DNA of 32,000 bases, from the NCBI GenBank assembly GCA_016196885.1, contig JACPWU010000003.1, positions 73,052-105,051 of the forward strand. Direction: 5' to 3'. The notes under the pieces were generated by a model, which did not search any database, was not told the origin of the DNA, and saw only the letters and a program-made list of their open reading frames with translations. Made by a program: the position numbers and the translations under genes. Each line of letters starts with the position of its first letter. Position 1 is the first letter of the stretch. Shown here piece by piece: positions 2,728-32,000 of the stretch. The DNA comes from Chlamydiota bacterium (GTDB lineage: Bacteria; Auribacterota; JACPWU01).

Positions 2728-2809
2728 ATGTAAACTGTGATAGAATGTTAAGAGTAGCCAGGGAAAAGGCCATTCTGAAGATTCTACAATATTCTGTGAG
2801 GATGATGCG

Positions 2810-3549: not shown

Positions 3550-3613
3550 GGATAAAGATGGAAAATTTTTATAGGCATATGCACTTGGCTCCAGTATTCT
3601 TGATCCCTCAAGC

Positions 3614-3670: not shown

Positions 3671-3699
3671 AATGGACGACACTTTTCCCCAATCTTTTC

Positions 3700-3758: not shown

Positions 3759-3803
3759 TCTCTCCATTTTAATCTCTTTAATCCTCCTCCTTTAAGCCAG
3801 ATT

Positions 3804-4007
3804 TTACAATAGACGCGAGAACTCAAGAGCAAGAGCTTGAGCCAGACAGGCCTTTGCAGTCCCTGTGGGATTGGCCTGAAGAAAGCGCAGGTATGCATAA
3901 AAAGATGCCTGTCGAGCATTTCTGAAGGCCAAGTACCCCAAGATGTTGCGTCGAATTCCGCGGCCTATTGCAAAATCTGGGTTTAAAGACGAGATCCTTC
4001 GTCGCAA
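3804..4007 (-). pseudogene. Possible truncated four-helix-bundle (23S rRNA IVS protein family) gene fragment
   Basis: RRRISSLNPDFAIGRGIRRN...ARQASFYAYLRFL resembles the family core RRAAVSIPSNIAEG.GR...F..IARGS..EL.TQL. The N-terminal half is absent: there is an in-frame stop 4 codons upstream and only a TTG start. Confidence 0.3.
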
Positions 4008-4171
4008 AAGAGCTCCTCAGGATGACAAATGAGGGAGGTTCTAGAACGGATCTTATTTTTAACTTTCTCTCCTAGAGTAACTTAAATTATTAAAAACTCC
4101 TCATTTTTCTTTTGACCTTCTGGCCCTTTCAGATGTCTTTAATGTTGAAAGCTGTTATAGCAAGGTACCTT

Positions 4172-14197: not shown

Positions 14198-17100
14198 AGT
14201 GGTTGAGGATTATGAAAATCGCAATATCGTTTTAACCATTGATACAGGGAATGCTACGAATGGGGAGGTTTATCTAGACAGAAGGATTTATGCTCCTCCT
14301 ACTGAGGAAGAAATATCTCAAATTTCAGCAGCGGGAGGCCTGGTTTATAACGTGGCTGTGAGATCGGGCTCTGTTAAAGAGTATTATACGGAGATAGAAT
14401 TAAAAACAACAGAAGGAGAAGTTGTAAAATTAAGGTATAAAATAGATTCGACAGTGATTGCTGCAGGTAGGGTTTTACTAGAAATTCCAGAAGGATATGA
14501 TATTGCAACCTTAAGTTCTTGGGTTGATGTCTTTTTATTTGATTATAACGATAGCAATAATGATGGTTTGCCGGATAATGACAGTATTGGAAAAGGAAAA
14601 ACGGAGATTGTCTTTGTCGGGCCTCATAAAGTCATCGCCTTTGACCCTGCCTCGGATGATTATCTTGATTATGCCTCGACCTATTTCTCCGAGGCTGTGA
14701 ATTCTGGTTATCAAAATTGCACGATAGGACTCACGGATTATGCAGTTGATTCTGCTTTGGGTGAGGCAGGTTGGAAGGTGCGTGCACTGTATTCTGATTC
14801 TGAGACTTTTGTGGCTGGATCAAAAGATTCTTATGCGATTCATTACTGGAAATTGGATGAAGGAAATGGAGGAGTACCCTTAAATATTCTCGACGAATAT
14901 GGTGATGTTTTGGTTGATACAGATGGAGATGGCGTTGGAGATTCTTTTCTCTTTAAGGGCATGTCTTCTTCTTATGATAATGCAGGGACTCTGATTCAGA
15001 CCTTGAAAAGGATCTGGATTGGATTTCAATATGTCAATGCCTACGGAGAGTTGGAATCAGAAGCGCATCCTGCAGTTTATGTGGAGAAGGGCAATGTCAA
15101 GGGATGGACAGTTCCTTTTTCGGCTTACACAAAGGTTGATTTTACGAAGGTGACCCAAGCTCAAGTGCTTTTTTATGGAACAGATGTGACGGATGAGCTG
15201 ATGACCCTTATCAATCAAGCAAAAGAGGCTGGGGATGACACGTTATACTCTGAATTGACTCAAGCCATTGGAGTGGATTATGCTGCTTGGGCACAAACGG
15301 GTGTGACGGCTTCAGGAGGCAGTGGCGCTAGAGAATCTGAATCACAATCCGCACTTCCTGAAATAAACGGCCCGTCTTTATCGGGCAACGTTCATCCTGC
15401 TGAATCCCCTGCGGGTGGAGGGGGGGCGGGACAGATTTCGACAGTCCCTGAATCTCTTTTACATCTTCTGGATCAATTGTTAGGGGGAGGATCACCGGGT
15501 GAGCATGGAAGTGCAAACTTCGGTCCCAATGCCATTTCAGTGACTCCTCCCCCTACTTATTTTGAGGGCGAAACGGGTGTGGCTCCGGTGGGTGATGCCA
15601 ACCTTGACACAACACCGCGCTCTCTTTCCAAAGATGGAAACGGCTCTTTGAAAATCACCTTTTCTTCAGATGATCTTTCGCAAGAGGGAGATTATTTGGG
15701 ATTTAATGTGACCCCGGGCTTCTTAGATTTAACCGGCTTGAGTGAATTTAATATTTGGATGGGAAATGCTTCAGGGATCAAGAGCGCTCGTCTTGCCTTT
15801 CTGGATGAGGAGGGCCATTATTGGTTTGGATTTTTAGATGGTATTTCTCAAAACGTAAATTCTTGGACTATCCCCAAGTCGGCGGTTGATTCTACCTCCA
15901 AGGGAAAATTAAATGGGTCCAAAGTCGCGGTTTTTATTTTGGTGGATAAAGAAAGTTTGGAAGAAGGTTTGGAAGGAGAAGATTTAAATTTAGACATTCA
16001 GTTTGGGCATAAAGTGGAAAGTGAGGCAGCCGCGTATGAAATCTATCCCCCGGGTTGTTCACAAGGAGGACTCTTTCCACGGGGGAGAATGACTCCTCTC
16101 TGGGGAATCCTCGTATTAATGCTTCCTTGGGTCCTACGTGCACGGGTCAGACGTGATGGCGGAGGCAGTGGCGGCGGGTCCGGCAAAGTCAGCTTTAGAG
16201 AAGATATTCGCAGAGCTCTCAGTGAACTCAAGCAAGGTCGGCATCTTTCTTCTATACCGACTCCAAGCCGAATCTGTGAAGATTTAGCCAGGCGGGTGAT
16301 TTCTGGAATGAACCCAGAAGGAGATGTGGAAGAGAATAAAAATTTTCAGGCTGAATTTTTAAGTGTATTGGCTCTTTTAGATGAGGAAACGCCCTTTTCA
16401 CAACTCAGCGCGGCAGTGGATCATCTTATTCAAACGCGTATGGATGAATTAAAAAGCGCTGGAAAAGAACCGCAAGAGAGTGGACTCTCTGATTTAAAAA
16501 ATGATTTTTTAGCTCAGATGATAGCCCTGCGGGCGGCATTCGAATCTATTCCCATTAACATTCGTGAAATGAGCACTATTTTAGAAGACTATGACCTTAG
16601 CAATGCAACAGTGGGTGAAGTCATGCTTCTTCCCTCTTCTTTTACATTAAACCCGTTTGCTTCCTTGATGTATGGTTTTATCGTAAAGGGAGACGAGATT
16701 CTGATGACCAATCTGGACTTTGAACGCCAACATCAGTCAGTTTCTTTTGATGCGCGAACTCAAAAAGCATGGGCAAGCCTTCGCGATAGGTTGGTCGACA
16801 GTCATAGGACTTATAAAGATCTTTACATCGGATTTATTGATTACATTGACCCCAACACATGGCTTCCTGAAATTTTAGACGCTCTTTTGAACGGAGATGT
16901 TCAATTTTCTAGAGGTCAAGGGGGCAAGGTATTTCTTGAGCTTTCTCCACGCCCGGGTTTCCCTGATGACGGGCGAGGGCTAAGAGCTGAAATCAGTTTT
17001 AACGGTGAAAGTGGCGATCATGAGAGTCGTATCCTGGTGAAGATAACCTCTCTGGATCATCTTTATCGCAAGTATTATGAAAATCATTTTCCGTATCAAA

Positions 17101-17723
17101 GACATGTCCTGGCCATGGATCACATTCTTTCGGGATTGAATGTGGATGCTTCTGGAAATGTTCAGGTCACAGGCGATCGCAGTGTGTTGGATGGCTTGAT
17201 CCATGATGTAGGTTGGGATGTAAAATCTATTATTACGGTTTCGTCGCCTGAAGGAGCTGATAAGAAACAAGTTGAGACAAATGTTCGTACGGCTCTGGGC
17301 ATTGAGGGCAATAAAAATATTGCGATTATGGTTTATGGGCATGAAACCACTGCGGAACAATTGCAAAATATGATTGAAAGAGCGGCCAGAACTTTGAGCG
17401 GGCTTAAAGAGTCATTTGATCCGAAAAAGAATTTGACTTTACTCTTCTCCGATCAAAACCCATTGGCTGAAGAGCTACATTCGTTGCAAAACCTCGTCGT
17501 CTGGATCGCTACAGGTGATCTAACCTTGAAAGACTTGTCCATTGCCTTCAACAGGGCTGGCTATGAAATGGATCCTGAGCTTGCTCAGTTGATTAAAGAT
17601 GCTGAAGGGGAGGCAGAGCTTTCCAGAGTTCTCAGTGGCCATATAGGCCCTGTTCCACCACACATGAGTCAATGGCTTGACTTTAAGAAACGTGCCCAAG
17701 AAGAAGCCGGGAAGCAGATGTAA
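14049..17723 (+). CDS. Giant protein 1, downstream part (Ca-binding/CBM-like repeats, TM anchor, about 530-aa C-terminal region)
   Basis: 1,224-codon ORF. TSP-type-3-like Ca motifs are DYNDSNNDGLPDNDS (14541-14590) and DTDGDGVGDS (14917-14946). A TM helix, TPLWGILVLMLPWVL, is followed by RARVRRD and GGGSGGGSG (16089-16184). GTG 14049 has AAGGGAG 10 nt upstream, so independent initiation cannot be excluded. Confidence 0.8.
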   Translation: MEGVNTIVFKAPRRVPLENLNGVTTTDDVIYLFQTEPERASASNGGVSAEVVEDYENRNIVLTIDTGNATNGEVYLDRRIYAPPTEEEISQISAAGGLVYNVAVRSGSVKEYYTEIELKTTEGEVVKLRYKIDSTVIAAGRVLLEIPEGYDIATLSSWVDVFLFDYNDSNNDGLPDNDSIGKGKTEIVFVGPHKVIAFDPASDDYLDYASTYFSEAVNSGYQNCTIGLTDYAVDSALGEAGWKVRALYSDSETFVAGSKDSYAIHYWKLDEGNGGVPLNILDEYGDVLVDTDGDGVGDSFLFKGMSSSYDNAGTLIQTLKRIWIGFQYVNAYGELESEAHPAVYVEKGNVKGWTVPFSAYTKVDFTKVTQAQVLFYGTDVTDELMTLINQAKEAGDDTLYSELTQAIGVDYAAWAQTGVTASGGSGARESESQSALPEINGPSLSGNVHPAESPAGGGGAGQISTVPESLLHLLDQLLGGGSPGEHGSANFGPNAISVTPPPTYFEGETGVAPVGDANLDTTPRSLSKDGNGSLKITFSSDDLSQEGDYLGFNVTPGFLDLTGLSEFNIWMGNASGIKSARLAFLDEEGHYWFGFLDGISQNVNSWTIPKSAVDSTSKGKLNGSKVAVFILVDKESLEEGLEGEDLNLDIQFGHKVESEAAAYEIYPPGCSQGGLFPRGRMTPLWGILVLMLPWVLRARVRRDGGGSGGGSGKVSFREDIRRALSELKQGRHLSSIPTPSRICEDLARRVISGMNPEGDVEENKNFQAEFLSVLALLDEETPFSQLSAAVDHLIQTRMDELKSAGKEPQESGLSDLKNDFLAQMIALRAAFESIPINIREMSTILEDYDLSNATVGEVMLLPSSFTLNPFASLMYGFIVKGDEILMTNLDFERQHQSVSFDARTQKAWASLRDRLVDSHRTYKDLYIGFIDYIDPNTWLPEILDALLNGDVQFSRGQGGKVFLELSPRPGFPDDGRGLRAEISFNGESGDHESRILVKITSLDHLYRKYYENHFPYQRHVLAMDHILSGLNVDASGNVQVTGDRSVLDGLIHDVGWDVKSIITVSSPEGADKKQVETNVRTALGIEGNKNIAIMVYGHETTAEQLQNMIERAARTLSGLKESFDPKKNLTLLFSDQNPLAEELHSLQNLVVWIATGDLTLKDLSIAFNRAGYEMDPELAQLIKDAEGEAELSRVLSGHIGPVPPHMSQWLDFKKRAQEEAGKQM
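14052..14630 (+). repeat. Protein-level tandem module, copy 2 (in the frame of ORF 14049-17723)
   Basis: AEVVEDYENRNIVLTIDTGNATNGEVYLDRRIYAPPTEEEISQISAAGG...LSSWVDVFLFDYN. The similarity starts at the first codons (GGVNTIVFKAP versus VGGNLIEVIPAG). Confidence 0.75.
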
Positions 17724-18621: not shown

Positions 18622-18800
18622 CAGCGAGTGGAAGGACTTTTTTTGGGATTTTTCTCTCATTCCCCAAAAACCTCTCTTTTTTAAATTTCTTTTTTACCTT
18701 TTAACCTTTCAAAGGGTCTTCCTCCTTGGCTCTTCGGATACTTTCTTCACTGAGAAAGTTCTCAATTTAACTTCAATTTAGACTGTCAACGGGGGGAGAC

Positions 18801-21800
18801 ATGTACAAAATTGTCCAAAAAATCACCAGTATTCTGCTTTGCTTATCTTTCTTTTCTTACGACGTCTCTTCAAGTTTTGCTCAGGAAACACATCTTCTAA
18901 ATCCTATAACATCTGCCCAAGGCGGAAAAGCGCTTGTAAATTCCTCGCTGAGTCTAGAGTCTGTTTTAGAGGATTTAAAAATCCCCTACGATTTTGGAGA
19001 GGTGATAGAAAAATCAGCCATTCCTAACCGTCCTTTGGTCTTCTTGATTGAAGATGTCCATTGCCATTCAGAGGTTCAGCTCAACATTCGCAGAATCTTG
19101 AACACGCTGCTTCGCGCGAACCTCAGCATGAATTCCCATGCCAAACTCAATGTCCTTTTGGAAGCGGCCGAAGGTCCTATGGACATGTCTTTCTTTACAG
19201 CCTTCCCGGACAAAGAAGTTTTGAAAATAGCTCAGGATCAATTCCTCAAAAATAATGACGTCACGGGTGTAGAGTCTTTCTTGATGACAGAGGGGGCCTC
19301 TCAGGCTCAAGGAGTGGGTATTGAAGATTTGTCCTCTTATGTGAACAACGTGCGTCTCATGGGAGAGTTGATTCAGGAAAATGAAGTCCATCAGGCCGAT
19401 TGGCAAAATCTGGACGAAGTCTTTGGTAAACTTCGCGAGAAAATTTACTCTAAGGATCTTTTAGAATTTGTTCAGAAAAAATCCGATTATGAAAATCTTG
19501 AGTTGGATGTGAATGATTATGAAGCTTATCTTTCCAGTGTTTATCAAAAAACTTTTCAGAAAAATGCAGGGGAAGAGAATCCCACATTGGGCAGCCTCGA
19601 GAAATTAAGAAAATTAGAAGTGGGTTTCGATGAGAATGCACTTCGCCAAGAATATTTATCTTATTTAAAAATATTGGAAAAAAATCTTTCCAAAGATGAA
19701 CTCACGAAAGTTTTGAGAAATGTTTTGGAATATCGCTTGGGACGAGAGAGCGATCAGGATCATTATTTGTTTTTGAGTCAATATTTTGAGAGGGTCAAGG
19801 GTCAATCCCACGGGGACTATAACAACATGGAGTCAGGGGTCAAGGAATATAGGAATTTAGAATCCATGTTTTCCCAAATGCTCATCATGAAGGAGCTTTC
19901 TTGGGAGCGTTTGGAGGCGGAGCTTCTGGCGGTTGAAAATAAGTTGATGGAAACATTGGCGGGGAGTGCGAACGAAAAGGCGCTTTTGTCTCTTGAGAAA
20001 GACCATGGGATTTTAAAAAGAATTGTGGCCTTTGAAGGGAAAAGGGAAGATATAAAAACAGCGTTCAGCGTTCAGCGTTCAGCGGACAGGAAAGACAATT
20101 CTGGCTTTGTAGAGAACCTTGTCCAGCGTTTAAAATCTGTAACCCAAGAAAACCATCTTTCCTTCTCCTCTCCCGATTTTGGAAAAACTTTTTCCTTGGC
20201 CAAAAAGTTTTATCAGCAGGTCTTAGATCGCGATCGGATTTTTCTGGATAAAGCTCTCAAAGAAATTAAAGAGAGAAAACTTTCAAATGCGGCCTTGGTG
20301 GTGGGTGGATTTCATACCTCTGGGCTGAAAGAAGCCTTTAAAAAGGCCCATGTCGGCTATTGGGTGATTGCCCCTCGTTATACCCAGCACGATGATCGCA
20401 GTGCCTATTTTAAAAAGATGAAAGAGCAGTTTGGCTTTCTAGGGGGTTCTTCTGATGAATTAGCGACCATGCCGTGGGATACCTTGGTTAATGTGGCTCG
20501 TACCCATGCAGTGTTGCTTCTTCCAGAGAGAGTAGGGCAAACTTTAGTTCAAATTTATCAAGACTTACACGAGGGTCAGCTTCCTGATTTTCAAGGTTGG
20601 GAAGCGGCTGTTCCCGCTTTAGCGGATGCAATTGCCGAGATTGAAAGACGGGTAGTGGCAGGGGAGCATGTTGCAAATCCTGCGACCGAGCCTTTAACGC
20701 CTGAAAGACTTCAAACCATTACCGGTCTGAGCGCTTCCCAAATTCAAACGCTTCTTTCTCCCAATTCTTCAGACGCTGAAACGGTCACAACAGCGAATGT
20801 TATTCTCAGATATCTAGGTACTTTGATGGAGAGAAATGGGTATGAGCGGGAGGGTTGGAGGGGTTTGGTGGAGGTGGAAGAAGAAGGAAGAGAAGGGCCA
20901 CCGTCTTCTACGGAAGAAAGCTCGAAAGGGCGTCTGTCTCTTCTAAAGGGTTCTGATATTTTTGAATATACGCTTGGTTTTTTTGAAAGCGTTGGAATTA
21001 CTTTTACGATACTGGCTCTCGCTTCGATAGTGGCTCTCGTTTTGGTTGCTAGCAGTCCTGTCATTCCTAATCCCGTCGCTAGACTGCCCGTTTTTTTATT
21101 CATGGAACTTCTGGGAAGTTATTTCATTTCTCAAAAGTTATGGATATGGGGTCACAAATCGATGCCAAGAATTTACGTTCGAATGAAAATAAATCATGGT
21201 AGCGCTTTTGCGGATAAGTGGTTTTGGAGGTTTAATGTAGAGAGAGATTGGGATGTTCCTTTTATCAGACAGAAAGAAACAAAGGGGATGGAAGCAAAAG
21301 AAGTAAAAGATCTTTTTAACACTCTAAAGGATGCTGTAGCCAGTGGTGCTAGAATTTCCAGATTGGAAAGAACAGCTAAAATTGTTTGGCAAATATCTTT
21401 TGGTGTTTCATTCTTCTTGGCGATTGCTCAATATCTTACTACACATGATGCGACGATGGACGCAACTATTTCTTGGGCAGGAATCCCTTTTATGATTGCT
21501 TTCATTATCGTTCATTTGGCAACCAGTATTGCCAGTCCACCCCGAGGCCGGTTGAGTTTGTTGGCTGGATCGCCTTCTCAAGGTGGAGCAGCGGGTGAAG
21601 TTCCTTCTAATGGAGTAACCCTTGTGGATCCTGAAATAAAAAAATATTCAGATATCCTTTCTCCAGAAGTACTGGCGATGACGGCAAAAATTGATCGAGC
21701 CACCAGAGATGAGAGAAAGGTTCGTAAAGAGGAAGAGGAAGCCAGAATAGCCGGGATTCGTCGAGGAGAGCAAGGCGTGAAGTTTCTTGATCCCAGTGAA

Positions 21801-24800
21801 ACCATTCCTTCGTTTCAAGGAGAATCCTGGACTGTTGAGAAAATTCGAACTGAATCTTGGACGGGGGCCATTCCTCAAGAAGTGGTTGAGGCTTCCAAAA
21901 ATGCAAATACGGTTCAAGAGCTCAAGGCTTGGTTTGAAGCAAATCCCCAATTTAAAAAATGGGCAAAGGTGGTTATTCAGCCCGATGAATTGACAGGGCC
22001 CGGAGACGGCTTAAACAAGGTTGCCTATGCCCTCAATGGAGTTAAGGGAAGCGATGGAAAAGCACATCCTCCAAGGCATTGGATGGTTGATTTTGAAGAT
22101 GCCTTGAAATTGAGAGATGTAATTAAAGGGGTTTATTTTACAACACAGGCCTTAAACGAACACCCTGACTTTTTGGAGGAGGAAACTAAAAAGGGTTACG
22201 GGCATCATCCGAAAAATTATCCCTTGGTGATTGCCCGTCCGTCAGGGGTCCATTTAGATGCGGCGGAACTCATGGTGGATGGAGAAAGTGCCTCTGCCAC
22301 TGTTGTGGCTGTCGTGAGTTATTTGGTGAATAATTATCAGGCATTAACCGAGTTAGGACAAGATCCCTTTTTATATTTACCCAAGATCAACAGTGTGAAA
22401 GACGCTTATTTATGGGACAAAATCCTGTCTTTGGCTGAGGATGAAATGAATCTTCCTCGCGGGACCGTTAAGACTCAGATGTTGGTTGAGCGTGTTTATG
22501 CCATGGCGGAGCTTGAAGAAATTATGTGGGTGCTTCGTCATCGAATGATCGCCATTAACGTCGGTCGTTATGATTATGCCAATAGCTGGGAACAGGCGAT
22601 GCAGGGCCAGTCAGATGTCATTTCTCCAGACTGGAAGCAAATGACCATGGACAAGGCCTTTTTGCGTAACTATGTCGAGCGAGTGGGCAAACTTGCTGCC
22701 AAGCACAGCATTCTTTTCATTGGAGGAATGGCGCAGCAAATTCCTGAAAAAAATGAAGCAGCTAATCAGCGTGCCATGGCCAAGGTCAAGGCGGATAAAT
22801 TGACTTATGAATATCCTTATGGAGTGAGCGGTGCCTGGATGGCACATCCCGGAATGGTTGAAACCTTACAAGCCGCATCTCAAGAAGGAATGCATGGAAA
22901 ACCCAATCAATTGGGTCTTGAGCGGGGTCCTGTGACCTATACACCCGAAGATTTGGCGGGGCTTTTAGAGCCTCATCCAGGGGTTTTGACAGAAGAAGGT
23001 ATTCGGGCCCAAATCAATATGAAGCTTCAATATGTGGCTTCCTATCTTTCAACCGGGGCGGCGGTTGCCGTGTATGATGCGGGTCAAGAGCTTAAATTGA
23101 TGCAGGATAGAGCCACCGATGAGACTGCTTATAATAAACTTTGGGCGGCCATGCATAAGCTTAAGGCGACTTTGCAAGACGGTCGTCATCTTAATCCTGA
23201 ACTTTTTGATCAACTGCTAGCGGATGAATTACGTAAGGTGAAGGCTGGAGAAAACAGTGCTGTTTCTTCGACCTATTACGATGTTGTAGCAGAGGTTTTA
23301 TCGAGGGTGGTGAAGTTTGACACGGTTATTCCCTGGTTTACAGATATTTTGCATTTGGTTGACCAGCTCAAGGATGAAAAGGGAGTGATCGATTCCGAAG
23401 TGGCTCGTCGGGCGATTGATACTTATTTAAATGTCTATAAATCCACAGGTCGAAGACTCACCCGTCCGGATCTAGGCGTTTTCTTTAGAACATGGAAGGG
23501 GGAGAGTCGTAGTGATGTGGTTGCGAGAGTTCAATCGGGAACCTGGAAGCCGGAAATTTTGGAAATTTATGATTATGTCCATGGGGTTCCTGTAAGCTCT
23601 CACATTCGCTCTATTCTCGAACAAATGAATCGTTCTCTCGCAGATGAATCTACAAATCTCAGCGATGCTGAGCGGCGTTTTGTTGAGCTTAGGGCGTGGG
23701 TTCGGGACGGAGTGGTTTTAGAGAATGGCCGTAAATTGGACGAGGATTTATTGTTGGATCTTTTTGACGAAGAAATATCGAAGATTAGAAAACAAAATCC
23801 TGAAGCTTACGCGAAAACAAGATATCCTGCTATTGCTCTTATCTTAGAGCAGGCGTTGACAGCGGAATATCAGATTCCTTCCCTGGGTAAGGTTTTAGAA
23901 GTTATCAGGGACTATAAAGATTTCGAGCAGGCGAGACCTCGTATTAGACAAGTTTTTCTCCATTATTCACTTCAGCATCAGATCGAGCAAGAAGAGATTA
24001 GACGCAATGATTCTCGCTTTAAAGGAATCAATCGTCTTGATTCAGCTCAAGATGTTGTGGGAGAAAGGGGAACCGTCCGGAATCTATATCATAGAGTCAA
24101 TACGCTTTCCGGAAGGCTTTTTGATCTTCTTAAGACGGCTTTGGAACGTGGTGAATCAGTTTCGACCTATGAAACCTCAACGGTTCCTCAGCTGATTGAG
24201 CAAGGGGTAGAACTCCCTGTGGCCTATGTGGGAGATACCCAGAGATCACAAGATCCCATTGTGAGACGCGTGAGTCGCTTTGCAAAGGCGCAAGAACTCC
24301 ATGATCGAAAAGATTTGGTCGCTTCCTATGAGAAAACAGGGGTTGCTAACATGAGTGGAAATCGTTTTCGCCCGATTATTGCGAGTGCAGATTTAGAGCA
24401 GCCTGATAAATCCAGTCATATCAATGTCCGAAAAAGAGTTCGTGAGCTGGTTCAGGCGGGTGCATCGGGTGTCAAATTAAGCAATCATTCTTACGATCAC
24501 AGTGAGTATGTCGAGGGGCATGTGCTGCTTTCCACAGAGGATTTTGTGGGGCGATTGAATACGGCTCGAAATACGGCGGATATTTTAGGGGTTTCGACTG
24601 TTCTGATGGCTTCCATTGACACAGAAGACGCCACGCTGATTGAAAGCATGGATGACAAGACCGATCAGCCCTTTATCTTAGGCGTCACTGGCAGGGGTGT
24701 AACATCATTAAAGGCATTTATTATAGAAAAGAAGCGCGAGGCAATGGGAACGGGAAGTTCTCTGTCTCGTCAGGATTGGATTAATTTAACCAGCGAGTGG

Positions 24801-27800
24801 AAAGCTCAGGCCGGTTTGATGACGTATTATGAAGCTGTGGAACGAGCTATTCTCATCGCCCGTCGCTATGAAAATAATGAGGATGGACGAGGAAATGCTT
24901 TGGCAGCGTGGCGTGAAATGCGTCATGCGCCACTTGCCGCTGCAAAAGCGAAGGCCAAAGAACTGGGATTTGGGGATGTGAGATGGAATGCTGAAAATGC
25001 AAGAACGCCTGAAAATTATTATCAAGTGAAGGGCGGGGTTGATATGGCCATTGCCATTGCGAAGAAGTCTAGTGATTTTTCGGATATTCTTCTAAGAAAT
25101 GGAGGCAAAAAAGATCTCGCAGAGACTGTGTCTGAGGCCAAGCAGTTTGCTGATGAGGTGAATACGGAGGGTTCAGAGCGCAAAATTCTCGCTTTTAGTT
25201 GGCCCTTGTCCACTGAGGTTGCGGGTCTTACACCAGAAGAGCTGACCCGTATTCCTGAGCAATTGGGCCAGTTTGGTTATGCGCTTCAATTAGTCCCCGA
25301 GGCAGGACCAGTAGGAGAGGCGCTTGCGATTAAAGCTTTTTCTCACCAATATGCCAAACCTGAGCGGCAAATGGAGGCTTATACATCGGATGTGCAACAT
25401 GAAGAGCTTAAGGCGGGCGCTCCCATGGTTGAACATCAGGGCTGGTCTGGGGCGGATCTCGTTGATTATGTTATGAAAGCCATCACAGGAGGAACCACTT
25501 CGACCGGGATTGTTCAGCAGGGATCAACCATTGATCAATTTAGTAAAAAAGCTTCCCCTGAAACTTTAACCGAAGCCACCGGTGCGCTCAGCGACGTTTT
25601 AGCTCATGCCTCGACCCCAACAGAAACTCAAGATCCAGAATTTCAAGAACGCGTGCGTAAGATTGAAGAGAAATTTGCACGTGATAAAGAAAAGAATGGG
25701 ATTGAGAGACCTTATTCGGCCGAGACCGTCGCGGTTTTGCAAGGGACGCTGCCCGATGATTATTCGCGGTCTCAACAGGTTGCAACAAAACTTCGCAGAA
25801 TGTTCAAGCGTCATCAGGAAGAAGGGACCCTTTCCAGTACCTTTGGCGCTCTGGATGGAAATCAAATTGAAACAATGGTGATGTTTCTTACATCGATTTA
25901 TGTCAGCGGCTGGCAGGCTTCTTCTACCGCTGGAAGCAATTTAGAAGGCGGACCTGATATTGCGGATTATCCCTATGATACGCTCCCCAATAAGGTGAGA
26001 GAGCTCATGGATGCGCTGATCGAAGGAGATCAAAAACAGGTTGAGCGCTATTTAAGTGAAGTAAAAGGTGTTTTTGACGAGGGTCAGAAATTACGGATCC
26101 CTTTACCTTTAAAAGATTATCCCTTCTTGCCCTTTTTTGTAGATTTTTTTGCTCCCATCATTGCGGATGCGGACACGGGACATGGGGGACTTACCGCTGT
26201 GATGAAATTAACCAAAATGTTTGTTGAAGCGGGGGCTGCTGCCATTCATATTGAGGATCAAAAGGCGGGAACCAAAAAATGCGGGCATATGGGTGGCAAA
26301 GTCGGGGTGGCCCTCCAAGAGCATGAGGATCGCTTGGTTGCTGTTCAATTAATAGCGGATATGATGGGTGTGGACTTGGTGATTGTGGCAAGGACAGACA
26401 TGGAAGCCGCAAAACTTCTGGACACCAATATTCATCCCTCAGATCATGCCTTTATTACAGGAACGACCAATGAAGAATTAGAAAGCTTAAATGACGTTAT
26501 TAAAAGAGCTCAAGAAGAAGGCAAGACCCCCAAACAGCTGGAGGAGATTACAAAGGCTTGGCTCAAAGAAGCCAATTTGGTCACTTACGCTGATGCTGTA
26601 GAAGCGATCGTAAGCAAAAACGGCATAAGTCCAATTGATTCAGATGCCCTTGAGCTGTGGAGAGCGGTGAATCATCCTCTTGAAGAAGTGAGTGTAGAGG
26701 TTGCTGAAAAAATAGCTCAAAAGCTTGGGTTCGATCTTGTGAAATTTATCGAAACGAATCCTCAAAGGGATCCTTCTTATCTTAATGCCTTACAAAATGC
26801 AGTTCGCGATTTTCTCAAGACACAATCCGGAAAAGAAAACCTGCTCAGTTTTTGGAATGCCATCCATGACCGCACGAGAGGTTTAAGCTGGGATGCGGCA
26901 AAAGCTTTTGCCAATGTCTTAGGCTATGATCCAAAGTGGAGTGCAGAAAAGCCCAGAACACGAGAGGGTTTTTATCAATTGAATGCGAAGCGGGAAAAAT
27001 ATGGCATTCGATATGGCATCATGATGAGCATTGTTCGTCTCTGGCATTATGCCCCTAGAGCCCATGTGCTTTGGGTTGAGACGGGTAATCCAGATGTAAA
27101 AGATGCTGCTACTATTGCAAAATATGTCCATAAGAAATTCCCAAAAAAATGGCTTGCCTATAACTGTTCCCCGTCATTTGTTTGGAGTAATTTTATGACC
27201 CCCGACGAGATTGCTCAGTTTCAGAGAAAATTGGGTGAGCTTGGCTATGTTTGGGTTTTTATCACCCTTGCTGGAATCCATATCGATGCTTTTACGACCG
27301 ATCGTTTGGCAAAATTAACCCGTACAGGCGGTCCTCTGGCTTTGATCAAAGGGGTTTGGGATATGAAAGTCGAAGCTGAAGCCCCTCTTATTTTGTCAGC
27401 GCTACAACTGCTCTATGAGCAGCATTCTAAACGCTATCAGGAATTAGTGCAAAGGTTAAACGGAGGAAATGAGCCATTTTCAGAGGCTGCGACCATTTTC
27501 TTTAACCAAATAAGAATTATTGATGGGAAAGGGTCTATCCATCCCTATCTTCTCGACTTTCTGAAAGGGGCAGTAACAAGTGAAGGGCCACGCTTTCCAA
27601 AAGAAAGGACTGTTGCAGGAGAACAAACCGGTAAAGGTTCATCCCCCTTCCAGGGCGAAGTGAATCGCGAGCATAGGAGTAAAGCGACAGACCAAAATTA
27701 TTATGCTGAGACGTCTAGAAGGAATGGGGTTACTTCACGGACAGAAGTTGAACAAGCGATAAGGACGGATACAAATTCTGAGAAAGTTAATCTTTCTTTG

Positions 27801-30236
27801 ACAGAGACAGCGGGTGAAATAAGGATGGTCTTTGACAGTAAATTTTCCGGATCCATGGGGAGCGGAAATGTTGGAAGAGCTCTTCAATCTGCTCTTGATT
27901 TGATGGATCCTAGCTATCGTCAGACCATGGTGGGAGCTTTGGATGCGTGGACAACCGATGAAAGTCCAATGGTTTTTGCTGCGTTCGATCAATCACGAAA
28001 TCTTGCCGAGAACCACCAGCGGGATCATTTTGGTGGAGTGAATATGGCGATCCCGAATATTCCACAGGATTTTGAAGGTTTAGAAGGATTCCCCTCCAGG
28101 GAGGTTTTAGAATCCATTCGCGACATTGCTTTCGCTGTCTCTGTTTTCCATGAACTGGGTCATGAAGCAGATGCAAATGCCCAAGAAGAGGAATTGACCG
28201 CAAGAGATGTTCAATTAACTTTCGCTCTTTTAAAGGCACGAGGGGTAACTCTTGAAGAGTATATTCAGGTGATGCGTAGAGTTGTTGCTCCACAGAGCCT
28301 CTACCTTGATGTATTGCATCCGCATAATGCATTGACTCAAGAGGAAGTAGAATCCGCGAATCGGTTGTTGAATCATTTATCTTCAGAAGCATTAAATATT
28401 CCAGAAAATTCCACGCTTGTAATCCTTGGGAATCCAGATCCTCAATTTCCAGGGCAGGCGGTTGAGGCAATACGTAAGCTCAATCCTTCTCGCATCATCA
28501 TTGTGGGAAAAGGGGGTGGAGATCGTCCTGAGTGGGAACGGATTCGAAACGCAATCCTTGAAATGGATCCCTTACTAGAGTCAAAGATTTTGACAGATTC
28601 TGGAGATGTTTCTATGAACACCGGTCAAAATGTATCATCGGTTGCTAAAATTTTTAAGGACAATTCGGGTTTATCTCCAAATGTTGTCCTTGTTGCATGG
28701 ACGGCGGGGGATCTTTTAGCCAGGCGTATTTTTGAGAAACAATGGGCTGAAAATGCTTCGAAACAGGATCTTTCAGGCGTTAATCCAACCTTTTATTCTT
28801 CACCTGTTCAAACCTCTTTTACCCTCACGGCCGGTGTACGTTTGAGTGAAACGGCTTTATCGTATCTTGAACGTGCCACGGGTCAAATTGGGCGTTTGGG
28901 AAGTTGGGGAGGTACGTTTATTAATCAACATGATGGAGATTTGCCAGCCAGTATTTTGGAAGATGCTCGGGTGGTTCAAGCCGCCTTGAATCGCATTACT
29001 CCGAAAGAAAAAATTCAGATGTCAGCGGCAGTTGGAAAAAAGGTTGAGCCTACTCGTTCATGGGTTAATGTAGATGGTTTCGAGGAGTGGATGAAGCTTT
29101 CGAAGAAAGCTGTATTGCAAGATCTTTCCAAAAGTCAGGATATGGCTCAAGTTTTTAGAGATTTGGGAAAGTATTTGGTGGAATATCGCGGGTCTTTCCC
29201 CATGACGGATGTTGAGTTTGATCGTTTGACCGATGAAGTGGGGGATCGCTTGGCGTTGGATAGAGATGAGGGAGCTAAAGAAGAGATTCGTGTCAATCTG
29301 GATGTGAGAACGATCCTTCAAGAGGCAGGACTTTCTCAAATGGTTCAAAATGTGGAGAGGGCTGTTCGGCGCGATGGTACTCCATTTCAATTGAATGAAG
29401 AGGTGGTCCTTGATTTAAGCTCCGAGATCCCGACGCTTTCACAATTAGGAGAAACAGGAAAGGTTGTAGCAAGAGAGTCCGTTAACGAGCTGCCTGATAG
29501 ATTGAGTTCCCCCAAGCAGATCACAATGCAGAACCCTCACTATTTTGCTCATGCCGTCGCTCATCTTGCATTGCAATCTAGATTGAGAGAGTCAGAGGAC
29601 AAATTGATCACGGGTGTTTCGGGTCGTAACGCGGTTTTAAAAAATGAAGTGGTTCTTCGACCCATTGACATAGAGCTTGTCAGGCAAGGGCAGCAAGGTC
29701 TGGGTTTGGGAGAAGTTGCGAAGAGACTGGGTTTAGGAAAGCCGATTGTAGTGGCTCATGACAAGAGTCAGGCTGATCTTGAGCAGGAATTGAAAGGGAT
29801 GGGCCTAAGTGATGTGTACGCTATTTCTTTGGCAGGGGTAGAGGAAGGTCAAAGAGGTGAAGCATTGACCCAAAGGGTAGGAGAGATATACAGCCAGAAT
29901 TTTCGGGCACAAAATAACGATCAGCCTTTTAATCCAGCCCAAAATATGATGTTTCTATGTCACGAGGGGAATAGAAGTATTTATGAACCTAGTTTACCCA
30001 CAAATGTTCCTGTTCGTTATGCAAGAATTTTATGGGTCGCCATTATTGCAACTTCATGTGATCCACAAAAAGTAATGGCCGCCTTGAGAGAAATGGGCAT
30101 TGATCCGACACCTTTCCAAGGATCTTTACAAGATATAGACACAAAGAGCATCAAGCCTATTTCCCTCTTTGAATCTTTAAGTGAACGTGACGCCAGAATT
30201 AAGAGGGCCGCTCACTTGAGAGAGACGAGCATGTAA
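18801..30236 (+). CDS. Giant multidomain membrane protein 2 (head domain, 4-TM block, malate synthase, degenerate ICL, ICL, HExxH, DUF218-like, tail)
   Basis: 3,811-codon ORF. GGGGGAG lies 2 nt upstream of ATG 18801. The N-terminus is signal-peptide-like: MYKIVQKITSILLCLSFFSYDVSSSFAQE. Confidence 0.9.
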   Translation: MYKIVQKITSILLCLSFFSYDVSSSFAQETHLLNPITSAQGGKALVNSSLSLESVLEDLKIPYDFGEVIEKSAIPNRPLVFLIEDVHCHSEVQLNIRRILNTLLRANLSMNSHAKLNVLLEAAEGPMDMSFFTAFPDKEVLKIAQDQFLKNNDVTGVESFLMTEGASQAQGVGIEDLSSYVNNVRLMGELIQENEVHQADWQNLDEVFGKLREKIYSKDLLEFVQKKSDYENLELDVNDYEAYLSSVYQKTFQKNAGEENPTLGSLEKLRKLEVGFDENALRQEYLSYLKILEKNLSKDELTKVLRNVLEYRLGRESDQDHYLFLSQYFERVKGQSHGDYNNMESGVKEYRNLESMFSQMLIMKELSWERLEAELLAVENKLMETLAGSANEKALLSLEKDHGILKRIVAFEGKREDIKTAFSVQRSADRKDNSGFVENLVQRLKSVTQENHLSFSSPDFGKTFSLAKKFYQQVLDRDRIFLDKALKEIKERKLSNAALVVGGFHTSGLKEAFKKAHVGYWVIAPRYTQHDDRSAYFKKMKEQFGFLGGSSDELATMPWDTLVNVARTHAVLLLPERVGQTLVQIYQDLHEGQLPDFQGWEAAVPALADAIAEIERRVVAGEHVANPATEPLTPERLQTITGLSASQIQTLLSPNSSDAETVTTANVILRYLGTLMERNGYEREGWRGLVEVEEEGREGPPSSTEESSKGRLSLLKGSDIFEYTLGFFESVGITFTILALASIVALVLVASSPVIPNPVARLPVFLFMELLGSYFISQKLWIWGHKSMPRIYVRMKINHGSAFADKWFWRFNVERDWDVPFIRQKETKGMEAKEVKDLFNTLKDAVASGARISRLERTAKIVWQISFGVSFFLAIAQYLTTHDATMDATISWAGIPFMIAFIIVHLATSIASPPRGRLSLLAGSPSQGGAAGEVPSNGVTLVDPEIKKYSDILSPEVLAMTAKIDRATRDERKVRKEEEEARIAGIRRGEQGVKFLDPSETIPSFQGESWTVEKIRTESWTGAIPQEVVEASKNANTVQELKAWFEANPQFKKWAKVVIQPDELTGPGDGLNKVAYALNGVKGSDGKAHPPRHWMVDFEDALKLRDVIKGVYFTTQALNEHPDFLEEETKKGYGHHPKNYPLVIARPSGVHLDAAELMVDGESASATVVAVVSYLVNNYQALTELGQDPFLYLPKINSVKDAYLWDKILSLAEDEMNLPRGTVKTQMLVERVYAMAELEEIMWVLRHRMIAINVGRYDYANSWEQAMQGQSDVISPDWKQMTMDKAFLRNYVERVGKLAAKHSILFIGGMAQQIPEKNEAANQRAMAKVKADKLTYEYPYGVSGAWMAHPGMVETLQAASQEGMHGKPNQLGLERGPVTYTPEDLAGLLEPHPGVLTEEGIRAQINMKLQYVASYLSTGAAVAVYDAGQELKLMQDRATDETAYNKLWAAMHKLKATLQDGRHLNPELFDQLLADELRKVKAGENSAVSSTYYDVVAEVLSRVVKFDTVIPWFTDILHLVDQLKDEKGVIDSEVARRAIDTYLNVYKSTGRRLTRPDLGVFFRTWKGESRSDVVARVQSGTWKPEILEIYDYVHGVPVSSHIRSILEQMNRSLADESTNLSDAERRFVELRAWVRDGVVLENGRKLDEDLLLDLFDEEISKIRKQNPEAYAKTRYPAIALILEQALTAEYQIPSLGKVLEVIRDYKDFEQARPRIRQVFLHYSLQHQIEQEEIRRNDSRFKGINRLDSAQDVVGERGTVRNLYHRVNTLSGRLFDLLKTALERGESVSTYETSTVPQLIEQGVELPVAYVGDTQRSQDPIVRRVSRFAKAQELHDRKDLVASYEKTGVANMSGNRFRPIIASADLEQPDKSSHINVRKRVRELVQAGASGVKLSNHSYDHSEYVEGHVLLSTEDFVGRLNTARNTADILGVSTVLMASIDTEDATLIESMDDKTDQPFILGVTGRGVTSLKAFIIEKKREAMGTGSSLSRQDWINLTSEWKAQAGLMTYYEAVERAILIARRYENNEDGRGNALAAWREMRHAPLAAAKAKAKELGFGDVRWNAENARTPENYYQVKGGVDMAIAIAKKSSDFSDILLRNGGKKDLAETVSEAKQFADEVNTEGSERKILAFSWPLSTEVAGLTPEELTRIPEQLGQFGYALQLVPEAGPVGEALAIKAFSHQYAKPERQMEAYTSDVQHEELKAGAPMVEHQGWSGADLVDYVMKAITGGTTSTGIVQQGSTIDQFSKKASPETLTEATGALSDVLAHASTPTETQDPEFQERVRKIEEKFARDKEKNGIERPYSAETVAVLQGTLPDDYSRSQQVATKLRRMFKRHQEEGTLSSTFGALDGNQIETMVMFLTSIYVSGWQASSTAGSNLEGGPDIADYPYDTLPNKVRELMDALIEGDQKQVERYLSEVKGVFDEGQKLRIPLPLKDYPFLPFFVDFFAPIIADADTGHGGLTAVMKLTKMFVEAGAAAIHIEDQKAGTKKCGHMGGKVGVALQEHEDRLVAVQLIADMMGVDLVIVARTDMEAAKLLDTNIHPSDHAFITGTTNEELESLNDVIKRAQEEGKTPKQLEEITKAWLKEANLVTYADAVEAIVSKNGISPIDSDALELWRAVNHPLEEVSVEVAEKIAQKLGFDLVKFIETNPQRDPSYLNALQNAVRDFLKTQSGKENLLSFWNAIHDRTRGLSWDAAKAFANVLGYDPKWSAEKPRTREGFYQLNAKREKYGIRYGIMMSIVRLWHYAPRAHVLWVETGNPDVKDAATIAKYVHKKFPKKWLAYNCSPSFVWSNFMTPDEIAQFQRKLGELGYVWVFITLAGIHIDAFTTDRLAKLTRTGGPLALIKGVWDMKVEAEAPLILSALQLLYEQHSKRYQELVQRLNGGNEPFSEAATIFFNQIRIIDGKGSIHPYLLDFLKGAVTSEGPRFPKERTVAGEQTGKGSSPFQGEVNREHRSKATDQNYYAETSRRNGVTSRTEVEQAIRTDTNSEKVNLSLTETAGEIRMVFDSKFSGSMGSGNVGRALQSALDLMDPSYRQTMVGALDAWTTDESPMVFAAFDQSRNLAENHQRDHFGGVNMAIPNIPQDFEGLEGFPSREVLESIRDIAFAVSVFHELGHEADANAQEEELTARDVQLTFALLKARGVTLEEYIQVMRRVVAPQSLYLDVLHPHNALTQEEVESANRLLNHLSSEALNIPENSTLVILGNPDPQFPGQAVEAIRKLNPSRIIIVGKGGGDRPEWERIRNAILEMDPLLESKILTDSGDVSMNTGQNVSSVAKIFKDNSGLSPNVVLVAWTAGDLLARRIFEKQWAENASKQDLSGVNPTFYSSPVQTSFTLTAGVRLSETALSYLERATGQIGRLGSWGGTFINQHDGDLPASILEDARVVQAALNRITPKEKIQMSAAVGKKVEPTRSWVNVDGFEEWMKLSKKAVLQDLSKSQDMAQVFRDLGKYLVEYRGSFPMTDVEFDRLTDEVGDRLALDRDEGAKEEIRVNLDVRTILQEAGLSQMVQNVERAVRRDGTPFQLNEEVVLDLSSEIPTLSQLGETGKVVARESVNELPDRLSSPKQITMQNPHYFAHAVAHLALQSRLRESEDKLITGVSGRNAVLKNEVVLRPIDIELVRQGQQGLGLGEVAKRLGLGKPIVVAHDKSQADLEQELKGMGLSDVYAISLAGVEEGQRGEALTQRVGEIYSQNFRAQNNDQPFNPAQNMMFLCHEGNRSIYEPSLPTNVPVRYARILWVAIIATSCDPQKVMAALREMGIDPTPFQGSLQDIDTKSIKPISLFESLSERDARIKRAAHLRETSM
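18970..20390 (+). other. Conserved 'head' domain, paralog of 4384-5935
   Basis: LIEDVHCH (about 19051-19070), LLEAAEG, KLREKIYSKDLLEFV, VGGFHTSGL (about 20304) and WVIAPRYTQ. Confidence 0.5.
20059..20086 (+). repeat. Heptanucleotide tandem repeat CAGCGTT x3 plus CAGCGGA in coding sequence
   Basis: CAGCGTT CAGCGTT CAGCGTT CAGCGGA, translated FSVQRSADR. Confidence 0.9.
20975..21540 (+). other. Block of about four transmembrane helices
   Basis: The hydrophobic runs are GITFTILALASIVALVLVASS, LPVFLFMELLGSYFI, IVWQISFGVSFFLAIAQYL and WAGIPFMIAFIIVHLATSIA. The block is flanked by KGRLSLLKGS and RGRLSLLAGS. Confidence 0.65.
21600..23450 (+). other. Malate synthase A-like module
   Basis: The family motifs occur in order: ELTGPGDG..K...ALNG, WMVDFEDA, IARPSGVHL (vRPRGWHL), PFLYLPKINS (yfYLPK.es), GTVKTQMLVERVYA (GTIKatvLIEt..A), INVGRYDY (lNcGRWDY), GAWMAHPG (G.WvAHP) and QDRATDETAYNKLW (EDaATaEIsR.Q.W). 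Boundaries are approximate. Confidence 0.8.
24010..25545 (+). other. Isocitrate-lyase-like module with a degenerate active site
   Basis: The ICL scaffold is present from the N-terminal RFKGINRLDSAQDV through FRPIIASAD to the C-terminal tail HQGWSGADLVDYV...GGTTSTG...GSTIDQF. However, TGHGG is replaced by LEQPD, HIEDQ by KLSNH, and KKCGH by YDHSEYVEGH. Confidence 0.65.
25690..27370 (+). other. Isocitrate lyase module (intact catalytic motifs, long eukaryote/ICL2-type insertion)
   Basis: ERPYSAETV, SIYVSGWQASST, ADYPYDTLPNKV, PIIADADTGHGG, AAAIHIEDQ, KKCGHMGGK (KKCGH at 26274-26288), VIVARTD, VLWVETG, LAYNCSPSF and VFITLAG. Confidence 0.85.
28149..28163 (+). other. HExxH motif (HELGH), possible zinc-metallopeptidase-like site
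   Basis: AFAVSVFHELGHEADA. This is motif level only; no third ligand was identified. Confidence 0.25.
28410..28800 (+). other. DUF218/YdcF(ElyC)-like module
   Basis: LVILGNP...IIIVGKGGG...PEWERIRN...SMNTGQNVSSV...VVLVAWTAGDLLARRIF parallels the DUF218 pattern (vvLG, i.sGG, E...m, S.nT.eNa, vilVTs..Hm.Ra...f). Confidence 0.4.
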
Positions 30237-31863: not shown

Positions 31864-31887
31864 CGAGTAGAACTACCTCCTGTCCTT

Positions 31888-32000
31888 GTAGGGATCAGAA
31901 GGTAGAACCCTCACGGATCCCCGCATGCAGATTTCCCGCACGGGGCTCTTCAAGATTTGTTTCGGTTCAGAATATGACATAAGGGTTCCATCCTAATGAT
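31888..32000 (-). mobile_element. Possible 3' end of a group II intron (domain V at 31916-31948, domain VI-like hairpin at 31888-31912); the body would lie beyond the window
   Basis: The minus strand reads GAGCCCCGUGCGGGAAAUCUGCAUGCGGGGAUC. This matches the D5 layout: AGC triad, 9-bp lower helix, 2-nt bulge, 4-bp upper helix and a GAAA-type loop. One G.A sits where G.U is usual. It is followed by GUGAGGGUUCUACCUUCUGAUCCCUAC, with an A 8 nt from the putative 3' end. Confidence 0.4.

Follow-up and report, generated by a model that had tools for sequence, protein, structure and literature searches.

Malate synthase and a dead/live isocitrate lyase tandem within a giant, signal-peptide-headed protein of a Chlamydiota metagenome-assembled genome

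The window analyzed here is a 32,000-nucleotide stretch of contig JACPWU010000003.1 (positions 73,052 to 105,051, forward strand) from the Chlamydiota bacterium assembly GCA_016196885.1, a metagenome-assembled genome (MAG). On the plus strand, one open reading frame (ORF; 18801-30236) runs for 3,811 codons in a single frame without a stop, and encodes a giant protein in which the two enzymes of the glyoxylate shunt, malate synthase (MS) along with isocitrate lyase (ICL), lie behind a predicted signal peptide. An earlier note on this DNA had described the two enzymes as fused in one 3,811-aa (amino acid) protein, and this is borne out by the uninterrupted ORF and by family matches. The protein is identical in sequence to the NCBI entry MBI3265566.1, "MAG: isocitrate lyase [Chlamydiae bacterium]". 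The features of this gene and its product are as follows:

18791-18798 (+): Shine-Dalgarno-like sequence GGGGGGAG, read from the sequence, with 2 nt between its end and the ATG
18801-18881 (+): predicted Sec-type signal peptide, aa 1-27, with an n-h-c layout (MYKIVQK, ITSILLCLSFF, and ..SSSFA ahead of QE) and an AxA-like site
18882-20660 (+): N-domain, aa ~28-620, the conserved head of giant proteins, placed by homology and an AlphaFold2 model
20925-20954 (+): motif copy 1, KGRLSLLKGS, aa 709-718, 12 residues ahead of transmembrane segment 1 (TM1)
20991-21047 (+): TM1, aa 731-749, VGITFTILALASIVALVLV, strongly hydrophobic (Kyte-Doolittle hydropathy, KD, 2.69; summed Hessa-type free energy, dG, -2.6)
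21075-21131 (+): marginal hydrophobic segment, aa 759-777 (KD 1.44; none at dG <= 3)
21141-21371 (+): Lys/Arg-rich loop, aa 781-857, with 16 Lys/Arg and 10 Asp/Glu, predicted cytoplasmic
21372-21437 (+): marginal hydrophobic segment, aa 858-879 (KD 1.5-1.6; none at dG <= 3)
21465-21533 (+): TM2, a probable transmembrane (TM) segment, aa 889-911 (KD 2.03; dG 2.2-2.4)
21543-21572 (+): motif copy 2, RGRLSLLAGS, aa 915-924, 3 residues past TM2
21612-23462 (+): malate synthase A-like module, aa 938-1554
23631-23933 (+): second, partial MS C-terminal-like segment, aa ~1611-1711
24006-25550 (+): pseudo-ICL, here ICL-N, aa ~1736-2250
25641-27350 (+): ICL with intact catalytic motifs, here ICL-C, aa ~2281-2850
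27381-30233 (+): C-terminal region of ~950 aa, with an HExxH motif and a weak DUF218 match
28146-28166 (+): the HExxH motif, FHELGHE, aa 3116-3122
28416-28742 (+): the weak DUF218 match, aa 3206-3314 (Pfam E 0.0038, below cut-off)

This ORF is a genuine gene, intact over its length and carrying the domains and catalytic motifs described below. That separate aceB, aceA, and membrane-protein genes were joined through mis-assembly or lost stop codons, a concern already raised in the earlier note, is very improbable. The source is a MAG and the exact protein is known from a single contig, which would fit an artifact of assembly or gene calling; however, one frame is kept for 11.4 kb through at least five domain junctions with even composition along the ORF, the sequence at the junctions is itself recognizable as homologous protein (an MS_C repeat and a pseudo-ICL), the same head is found in a paralog within the window, and the same type of fusion recurs across many independent assemblies. 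An assembly chimera was set aside on the continuous frame, the homologous junctions, and the recurrent independent fusions.

Profile searches recovered both enzyme families, and in proper alignments of the MS module and of ICL-C the catalytic residues are retained. For MS, the Pfam families MS_TIM-barrel (PF01274; aa 1143-1383, E 3e-52, 177.5 bits against a gathering cut-off of 26.4) and MS_C (PF20659; aa 1397-1509, E 2.4e-17, 63.9 bits against a gathering cut-off of 23.1) were matched, and the NCBIfam model for malate synthase A (TIGR01344) gave 295.8 bits, under its equivalog cut-off of 594.5. Pfam did not report the N-terminal helical MS_N in the module; aa 937-1016 can be placed against the N-terminus of Bacillus anthracis malate synthase A (MSA), in an alignment that is non-significant. 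The Arg of RP.G.H, the Glu of LVE, and the Asp residues of GRYDY and QDRATDE, which had been named as kept, lie in IARPSGVH (aa 1144), LVE (aa 1228-1230), GRYDY (aa 1255-1259), and QDRATDE (aa 1435-1441), and R1146, E1230, D1258, and D1436 align with identical residues of Escherichia coli MSA (3CUZ; E 1.3e-65). We take these to be the counterparts of the catalytic Arg166 and Asp447 (R1146 and D1436) and of the Mg ligands Glu250 and Asp278 (E1230 and D1258). The GRYDY and QDRATDE variants are unusual and are shared only with P0001, a metagenomic protein that is 48% identical to the MS module and belongs to the same divergent subfamily. No relative was recovered when genomes were scanned with the MS module, and the gene downstream of P0001 is unrelated to the focal protein. 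The second, partial MS segment matches MS_C weakly (Pfam E 1.8e-4) as well as the MS_C region of P0001 (BLASTP, E 1e-5).

The ICL-C module was matched by PF00463 with E 1.7e-200 (667 bits against a cut-off of 26) and by TIGR01346 for isocitrate lyase with 684.7 bits, over the cut-off of 275.9. Its motifs (aa 2369-2827) comprise SGWQ (2369), DADTGHGG (2456), HIEDQ (2483), KKCGHMGGK (2492), NCSPSF (2788), and TLAGIH; the first five had been listed in the earlier note and all lie where it placed them. The combination of SGWQ and TLAGIH is that of true ICLs, whereas SGWA and SLAGLH stand at these places in P0174 and P0175, which are fungal methylisocitrate lyases. Among solved structures, the best relative was 5E9H (E 2e-111), whose chains we take to be fungal ICLs; Mycobacterium tuberculosis ICL2 came next with E 2e-72, and then E. 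coli ICL with E 4e-69. Phylogenies of both modules had been suggested as a check. For ICL, a crude neighbor-joining (NJ) tree, with bootstrap values that are unreliable and used only jointly with motif signatures, groups ICL-C with canonical/eukaryote-type ICLs.

The interval of ~750 aa between MS and ICL noted previously is no mere linker, as it holds the MS_C-like repeat and a full-length dead ICL. This ICL-N was matched by the Pfam ICL family over positions 10-526 of 526 (E 7.7e-63), and both it and ICL-C carry the eukaryote-type long insertion. Its active site has been altered throughout: SGWQ is replaced by GDTQ, DADTGHGG by SADLEQPD, and HIEDQ by KLSNH, and KKCGH and NxSPSF are lost. The conserved lid tail (HQ.WSG...GG..ST...G.TE.QF) shows the reverse, being nearly canonical in the dead ICL-N (HQGWSGADLVDYVMKAITGGTTSTGIVQQGSTIDQF, aa 2212-2247, with HQGWSGA..GGTTST..GSTIDQF) and diverged in the live ICL-C (EQHSKRYQELVQRLNGG, aa 2873-2889). 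The two copies share 25% identity (E 1e-16); the duplication is therefore old, and a recent one was set aside. In ICL, the tail of one subunit forms the lid on the active site of its partner, and the dimer is the minimal functional unit (PMC8099091). Given this role of the tail and the complementary decay, in which ICL-N lacks the active site and ICL-C the tail, the two copies probably form an intramolecular pseudo-heterodimer in which the dead partner would give the lid to the live one. An exhaustive HMMER search with the tandem, covering 1.84 billion representatives, found no second protein with such a tandem; the best non-self match was a single ICL with 46% identity.

The exhaustive search also provided the closest relatives, whereas a word-indexed search with the tandem returned mostly ICL2-type proteins. 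Approximately 20 long ICL-bearing proteins were recovered, and MS was also present in 16-17 of 19. Thus, at least 16 other large proteins contain both enzymes, mostly with a signal peptide; these are 1,200-6,135 aa long and come from independent assemblies of Omnitrophota, Elusimicrobia, and other MAGs, and their catalytic motifs are intact almost throughout. Several carry further enzymes:

P0242 (JGI), 4,875 aa: N-domain, AceK, MS, ICL
P0232 and P0313, 3,052 and 3,060 aa: N-domain, ICL, MS, GTP-PEPCK
P0220, 2,950 aa: ICL, MS, class-V aminotransferase (Aminotran_5)
P0249, 3,243 aa: MS, ICL, weak FBPase-like match

At the locus of P0313 (L086, 9890-22839, in a 421-kb JGI contig), the gene for the signal peptide-N-domain-ICL-MS-PEPCK protein (3,060 aa) has as its immediate upstream neighbor a gene for a signal peptide, an N-domain, and AceK (1,165 aa), such that the two make up an aceK/aceA/aceB/pck-like unit in which each chain has an exported head. 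In P0242, we also observed nearly identical hydrophobic cassettes (..LALIAAVSLGSAVASAAL) at aa ~934 and ~3121, which bracket the AceK-MS-ICL block, and a second cassette pair (ALSLEYALSIGGF.GLFILGFYAYQFLLHVF) at aa ~3685 and ~4188.

The N-domain was found at 94 loci in GTDB species-representative genomes, mostly of Omnitrophota and Elusimicrobiota, where typical host ORFs are still open past 3,800-3,900 aa. At 80 kept loci, none had MS or ICL within 10 kb; other cargo included PPDK (L055), ARMT1, CofD, DUF218, and an M50-like region. Because 16-17 of the 19 long ICL proteins have MS and none of these 80 loci has either enzyme, MS and ICL appear to travel as a pair. Their occurrence together or not at all, beside enzymes of the same route, argues for selection on pathway function rather than an assembly artifact, and reading these modules as a pathway is supported by relatives in which MS and ICL are accompanied by AceK, by PEPCK, by an FBPase-like region, or by a class-V aminotransferase. 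Motifs and the crude NJ tree suggest that most Omnitrophota giants share an ICL clade of their own (DGDTGH, TIFQDH) and that others use the ICL2 type. These differences in ICL type suggest that the enzyme pair may have been recruited more than once.

These comparisons bear on whether the MS-like and ICL-like modules have instead been repurposed, either as binding or structural units or as enzymes for other substrates (other 2-oxo acids, acyl-CoAs, or methylisocitrate), in a surface protein for attachment or signaling. One ICL copy is demonstrably dead, the MS module has atypical residues beside a catalytic Asp and in GRYDY along with its sub-cut-off score, and ~40% of the focal protein has no recognizable function, all of which would suit such a role. 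Yet in MS and ICL-C no catalytic or metal-binding position has been lost, and this conservation extends across very divergent giants (22-35% identity), which argues for purifying selection on catalysis; the co-fusion of AceK and PEPCK also fits the canonical pathway. We therefore consider repurposing improbable.

The question of where these enzymes would act begins with the head of the protein. The signal-peptide layout recurs in P0002, a protein from a Chlamydiae-labelled MAG, and in the product of gene B, a giant neighbor of the focal gene in the window (4112-14197, + strand; 3,361 aa). Of 68 N-domain ORFs from other genomes, 65 have a canonical n-h-c signal peptide ahead of the N-domain, with a charged n-region, 12-15 hydrophobic residues, and an AxA-like site; such signal peptides are also found in the MS/ICL giants. 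The N-domain itself is 24% identical to the N-terminus of B (E 2e-38), which makes B a paralog of the head that the earlier account of the focal protein had missed, and 37-40% identical to P0002 and to P0003 (also Chlamydiae-labelled). Judging from accessions only 866 apart, P0002 probably comes from the same MAG as the focal protein. Three motifs of the N-domain (D-x-H-C, E-A-A-x-G, and G-G-F-H) are invariant and flank a large helical insertion. No Pfam or NCBIfam family matched this domain, and Foldseek searches of its AlphaFold model (six-sequence alignment; pLDDT 72.8, fair quality) against the PDB gave no match at E <= 0.001. Weak hints were obtained for ChaN (2G5G; E 0.8, probability 0.57) and the erythromycin esterase EreC (E 3). 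These hints agree with the invariant motifs, and the N-domain may be a distant candidate for the ChaN/erythromycin esterase/TraB/Tiki superfamily, which is marked by paired motifs (G/E-x-x-H ... E ... G-x-x-H).

Several side observations concern the N-domain. A motif, (S/N)FW(K/E)ERR, is conserved at the mature N-terminus, past the predicted cleavage site, in many Elusimicrobia N-domain proteins (L014, L054, L056, L068, and L083 among them), and at L014 a Peptidase_M50-like membrane region directly follows the N-domain. In the Chlamydiae-labelled MAG GCA_016178005.1 (L002, 10001-16509), the N-domain is a separate ORF of 625 aa, the end of which is overlapped by an ORF of 1,570 aa that has hydrophobic segments but matches no Pfam family; the pair may be a split or frameshifted giant gene.

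Between the N-domain and MS lies the membrane block. Here the signal-peptide-like N-terminus and the even number of TM segments described previously were supported, and the count of about four was not, as two segments are firm (TM1 and TM2) and two marginal; the segment at aa 759-777 is probably not an autonomous TM. The span between the two firm segments carries 16-18 Lys/Arg. By the positive-inside rule, Lys/Arg-rich loops are cytoplasmic. The topology we prefer as the best fit to the sequence would thus have the N-domain outside, TM1, the Lys/Arg loop inside, TM2, and the enzymes outside, since with an even TM count the enzymes end up on the side of the membrane where the N-terminal domain lies. 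Relatives point the same way: at least eight lack a TM-grade segment between the signal peptide and MS/ICL (P0232/P0313, P0220, P0246, P0249, and P0272 are among those without TM ahead of the enzymes), and the AceK protein at L086 has none after its signal peptide. From these relatives, the enzymes would share the compartment of the N-domain across the family, and a location of MS and ICL on the outer side of the membrane is slightly favored.

Two observations on this block stand apart from the topology. The two copies of [KR]GRLSLLxGS bracket it and were found in none of the other proteins fetched. Their codons differ (17 of 45 nt identical), so the repeat is maintained at the protein level, and a recent internal DNA duplication was set aside as its source; a role as a processing or recognition site is speculation. 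A comparison was also made with chlamydial inclusion-membrane (Inc) proteins, which combine a bilobed hydrophobic hairpin with an N-terminus for type III secretion. The four hydrophobic segments can be grouped into two hairpin-like pairs, but only two of them are more than marginal and the N-terminus looks Sec-like instead, and the Inc reading was set aside.

The placement outside has to be weighed against an ordinary glyoxylate bypass with channeling in a membrane-tethered cytoplasmic metabolon. In that arrangement the N-domain would be periplasmic and the TM count odd (TM1 plus a hairpin of aa 858-879 and 889-911), which would leave everything from MS through the pseudo-ICL and ICL to the C-terminal region in the cytoplasm of the bacterium itself. 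This is biochemically the simplest solution, as acetyl-CoA and isocitrate are cytoplasmic, the AceK, PEPCK, and PPDK of relatives need ATP or GTP, and AceK needs isocitrate dehydrogenase (IDH); a three-TM reading also keeps the Lys/Arg loop and the PPRGR past the last TM inside. However, the segment at aa 858-879 is only marginally hydrophobic, and P0232/P0313, P0220, P0246, P0249, P0272, and the L086 AceK protein carry these enzymes directly behind a canonical signal peptide and N-domain and lack any TM. We regard the cytoplasmic arrangement as possible but doubtful.

Returning to the outer-side placement, several points weigh against it and against the wider interpretation built on it. Malate synthase requires acetyl-CoA, which is not expected in the periplasm, and the partner domains PEPCK, PPDK, UDPGP, and methyltransferase require nucleotides (GTP/ATP) or S-adenosylmethionine. 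To our knowledge, cytoplasmic IDH is the sole substrate of AceK. With such cofactors and substrates not expected in the periplasm, the proteins must act in a different cell unless the predicted topology is incorrect. The focal MS reaches half of the NCBIfam equivalog cut-off, and its substrate could differ given this score and the GRYDY/QDRATDE variants. The order MS-pseudo-ICL-ICL occurs in no close relative, and our signal-peptide and TM calls are hand-made hydrophobicity scans. In a study of similar giant proteins, West-Roberts et al. call such predictions unreliable, doubt their own prediction of an extracellular location, and suspect overlooked TM helices (bioRxiv 10.1101/2023.11.21.568195), a suspicion that also lends weight to the cytoplasmic arrangement. 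Signals that point outside and chemistry that points to a cytoplasm may be reconciled by action in another cell or on its metabolites, by action in the periplasm of an intracellular bacterium supplied via porins, or by a wrong topology.

We favor the following explanation, with a rough probability of 0.5 for the whole. The focal protein belongs to a giant modular family in which a Sec signal peptide and an N-domain of ~600 aa are followed by a variable set of central-metabolism enzymes, and its own cargo would be a one-polypeptide glyoxylate bypass. ICL-C would split isocitrate into succinate and glyoxylate, and the MS module would join glyoxylate to acetyl-CoA to give malate, with the covalent linkage holding the reactive glyoxylate near its consumer. 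As an ICL needs the tail of a partner subunit to close its active site, ICL-N would serve as the built-in partner. The signal peptide would be cleaved and the enzymes anchored at the inner membrane, in the periplasm or on the cell surface; placed outside, they would work on metabolites of a host or prey rather than those of their own cytoplasm. Enzyme activity, pseudo-dimer, and topology are what we infer here from sequence features. The earlier note had offered tethering, channeling, export, or delivery as cargo; the signal peptides and topology narrow this list without settling it.

The lineages that carry N-domain giants are largely host-dependent. A more specific version of the favored explanation, which we consider rather unlikely as it stands, would make these proteins Sec-routed giant carriers of an exported module for acetate assimilation and gluconeogenesis (ICL and MS, with AceK and PEPCK in relatives), with its site of action beyond the producer's cytoplasm: where the bacterium meets a host or prey cell, within that cell, or in the periplasm of an intracellular bacterium supplied with host metabolites. 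The victim's isocitrate and acetyl-CoA would be turned into malate, succinate, and phosphoenolpyruvate (PEP) that a small bacterium deficient in the tricarboxylic acid (TCA) cycle could import, and such proteins would form a new class of "metabolic effector". If this is true, part of the giant genes that lack an explanation in Omnitrophota, in Elusimicrobiota, and in certain Chlamydiae-like lineages would gain a function.

For the C-terminal region, beyond the HExxH motif and the weak DUF218 match, PDB and NCBIfam searches gave no match, and an AlphaFold2 model of the C-terminal 821 aa, built without an alignment, had a pLDDT of 37.5 and was discarded. The remaining features of the window are as follows:

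3-1988 (+): ORF of at least 661 aa that runs off the window start, with a strong two-helix hydrophobic hairpin at aa 219-273 and no Pfam match
1989-4111: ~2.1 kb with no ORF of at least 150 aa on either strand, in otherwise densely coding surroundings; tRNA and Rfam searches gave no match there
4112-14197 (+): paralogous giant gene B, with the same signal end (..GFAQE) and N-domain and other cargo
14049-17723 (+): ORF C, 1,224 aa, sharing 149 nt, read in a different frame, with the end of B; no Pfam family
30616-31863 (-): AAA_14/DUF4143 ATPase gene
31862-31950 (-): match to domain V/VI of the Rfam group II intron family, with a score (40 bits, E 1e-4) equal to the gathering threshold

In B, the cargo regions resemble a methyltransferase (aa 999-1166) and a UDP-glucose pyrophosphorylase (UDPGP, aa 1447-1587), and the sole TM-grade segment of the protein (aa 2134-2152) comes after both. 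In ORF C, aa 51-167 are 34% identical to aa 3183-3299 of B (stretch 13900-14197), and this ORF may either continue B after a frameshift or represent a repeated module. The group II intron match abuts the start of the ATPase gene, and the remainder of the intron would fall beyond the window.

Three things are new here: a glyoxylate shunt within a signal-peptide-headed giant protein, the recurrence of that shunt with AceK and PEPCK in relatives, and a dead/live ICL tandem in which active site and lid have been lost complementarily. Neither MS-ICL fusion as such nor giant proteins with embedded central-carbon enzymes are new. If the enzymes are active, this would be the first glyoxylate shunt described in a membrane-anchored giant protein with a signal peptide, and this design, coherent as a pathway, is no one-off, as it recurs in several phyla that are poorly known and for the most part depend on hosts. 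As Omnitrophota and Elusimicrobia giants share the arrangement, enzymes of central metabolism may work outside the cytoplasm of their producer, a question on which these proteins bear directly. For giant bacterial genes in general, embedded modules offer assayable clues to purpose, and for obligate oligomers such as ICL in fusions, a dead paralog as lid donor may be the solution. Surveys based on KEGG orthology (KO) that score the glyoxylate shunt as absent, as in 0 of 176 complete Omnitrophota genomes (bioRxiv 10.64898/2026.06.07.730766), may overlook embedded domains.

Independent MS/ICL fusions are known from nematodes, Euglena, and Anaeromyxobacter dehalogenans (Kondrashov et al., PMC1630690). 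These classical bifunctional proteins have both shunt enzymes in one chain, as the focal protein does, and the order is MS then ICL in Euglena gracilis, as here, but ICL then MS in nematodes. They are soluble, about 1,000-1,200 aa long (about 1,000-1,400 aa for bifunctional MS-ICL fusions as a class), and have adjoining domains with no signal peptide, TM, or dead ICL, whereas the focal protein has a signal peptide, TM segments, ~730-750 aa between the enzymes (including the pseudo-ICL), and an extra 1,900 aa. The crude NJ tree gives no sign of orthology between ICL-C and the Euglena, nematode, or Anaeromyxobacter fusions. Unpublished soluble MS-ICL2 fusions of 1,414-1,423 aa are common in Dadabacteria and Thermodesulfobacteriota MAGs (P0041, P0047, P0058, and P0074; loci L003-L005), where their gene neighborhoods are ordinary bacterial ones and their sole annotation is "isocitrate lyase/PEP mutase family protein". 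Like the focal protein, they are bacterial, have the order MS then ICL, and retain the catalytic motifs; unlike it, they are of the Mycobacterium ICL2 type (GGWA, KKCGHQGGK, and TYGGHQ), have no signal peptide, N-domain, or TM, and share 28% (MS) and 33% (ICL) identity with the focal modules. In the earlier note, aceA and aceB as normally separate genes of bacteria had made the fusion seem near-unique; this near-uniqueness is contradicted by these proteins, by Anaeromyxobacter, and by the at least 16 other large proteins.

Among single ICLs, the fungal/eukaryote-type enzymes and M. tuberculosis ICL2 have the long insertion in common with ICL-C and ICL-N, and the focal protein differs from both in its dead/live tandem and in a live copy without the lid tail. 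The gene content of the aceBAK operon of enterobacteria is mirrored by fusions in the relatives (AceK-MS-ICL in P0242, and AceK beside ICL-MS-PEPCK at L086); AceK was not found in the focal protein. The operon encodes three separate cytoplasmic proteins, whereas the relatives have fused chains with a signal peptide and N-domain.

The Archaeovorins of Omnitrophota are predicted to be extracellular and contain TPI, PGI, FBPase, PGM, aldolase, and PPDK domains; their published hallmarks are a length of at least 10,000 aa, HEAT, SecA-DEAD, and C39/S8 domains, and a flanking type II/IV-like locus with pilZ, and MS, ICL, AceK, PEPCK, and the glyoxylate shunt go unmentioned in that report (West-Roberts et al., bioRxiv 10.1101/2023.11.21.568195). 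Pfam detected no HEAT, SecA-DEAD, C39/S8, or glycosyl-hydrolase domain in the focal protein, and none of the published hallmarks, type II/IV secretion genes included, was found in the 32-kb window. Archaeovorins, at 10,000-30,000 aa or more, are far larger than the focal protein, the source of which is labelled Chlamydiae. The two nevertheless share a very long ORF, a signal-peptide start, scattered TM segments, embedded central-carbon enzymes, and the same puzzle of location, and the focal protein's N-domain is also found at the start of giant ORFs from Omnitrophota and Elusimicrobiota, of which one has PPDK, a domain that Archaeovorins carry too.

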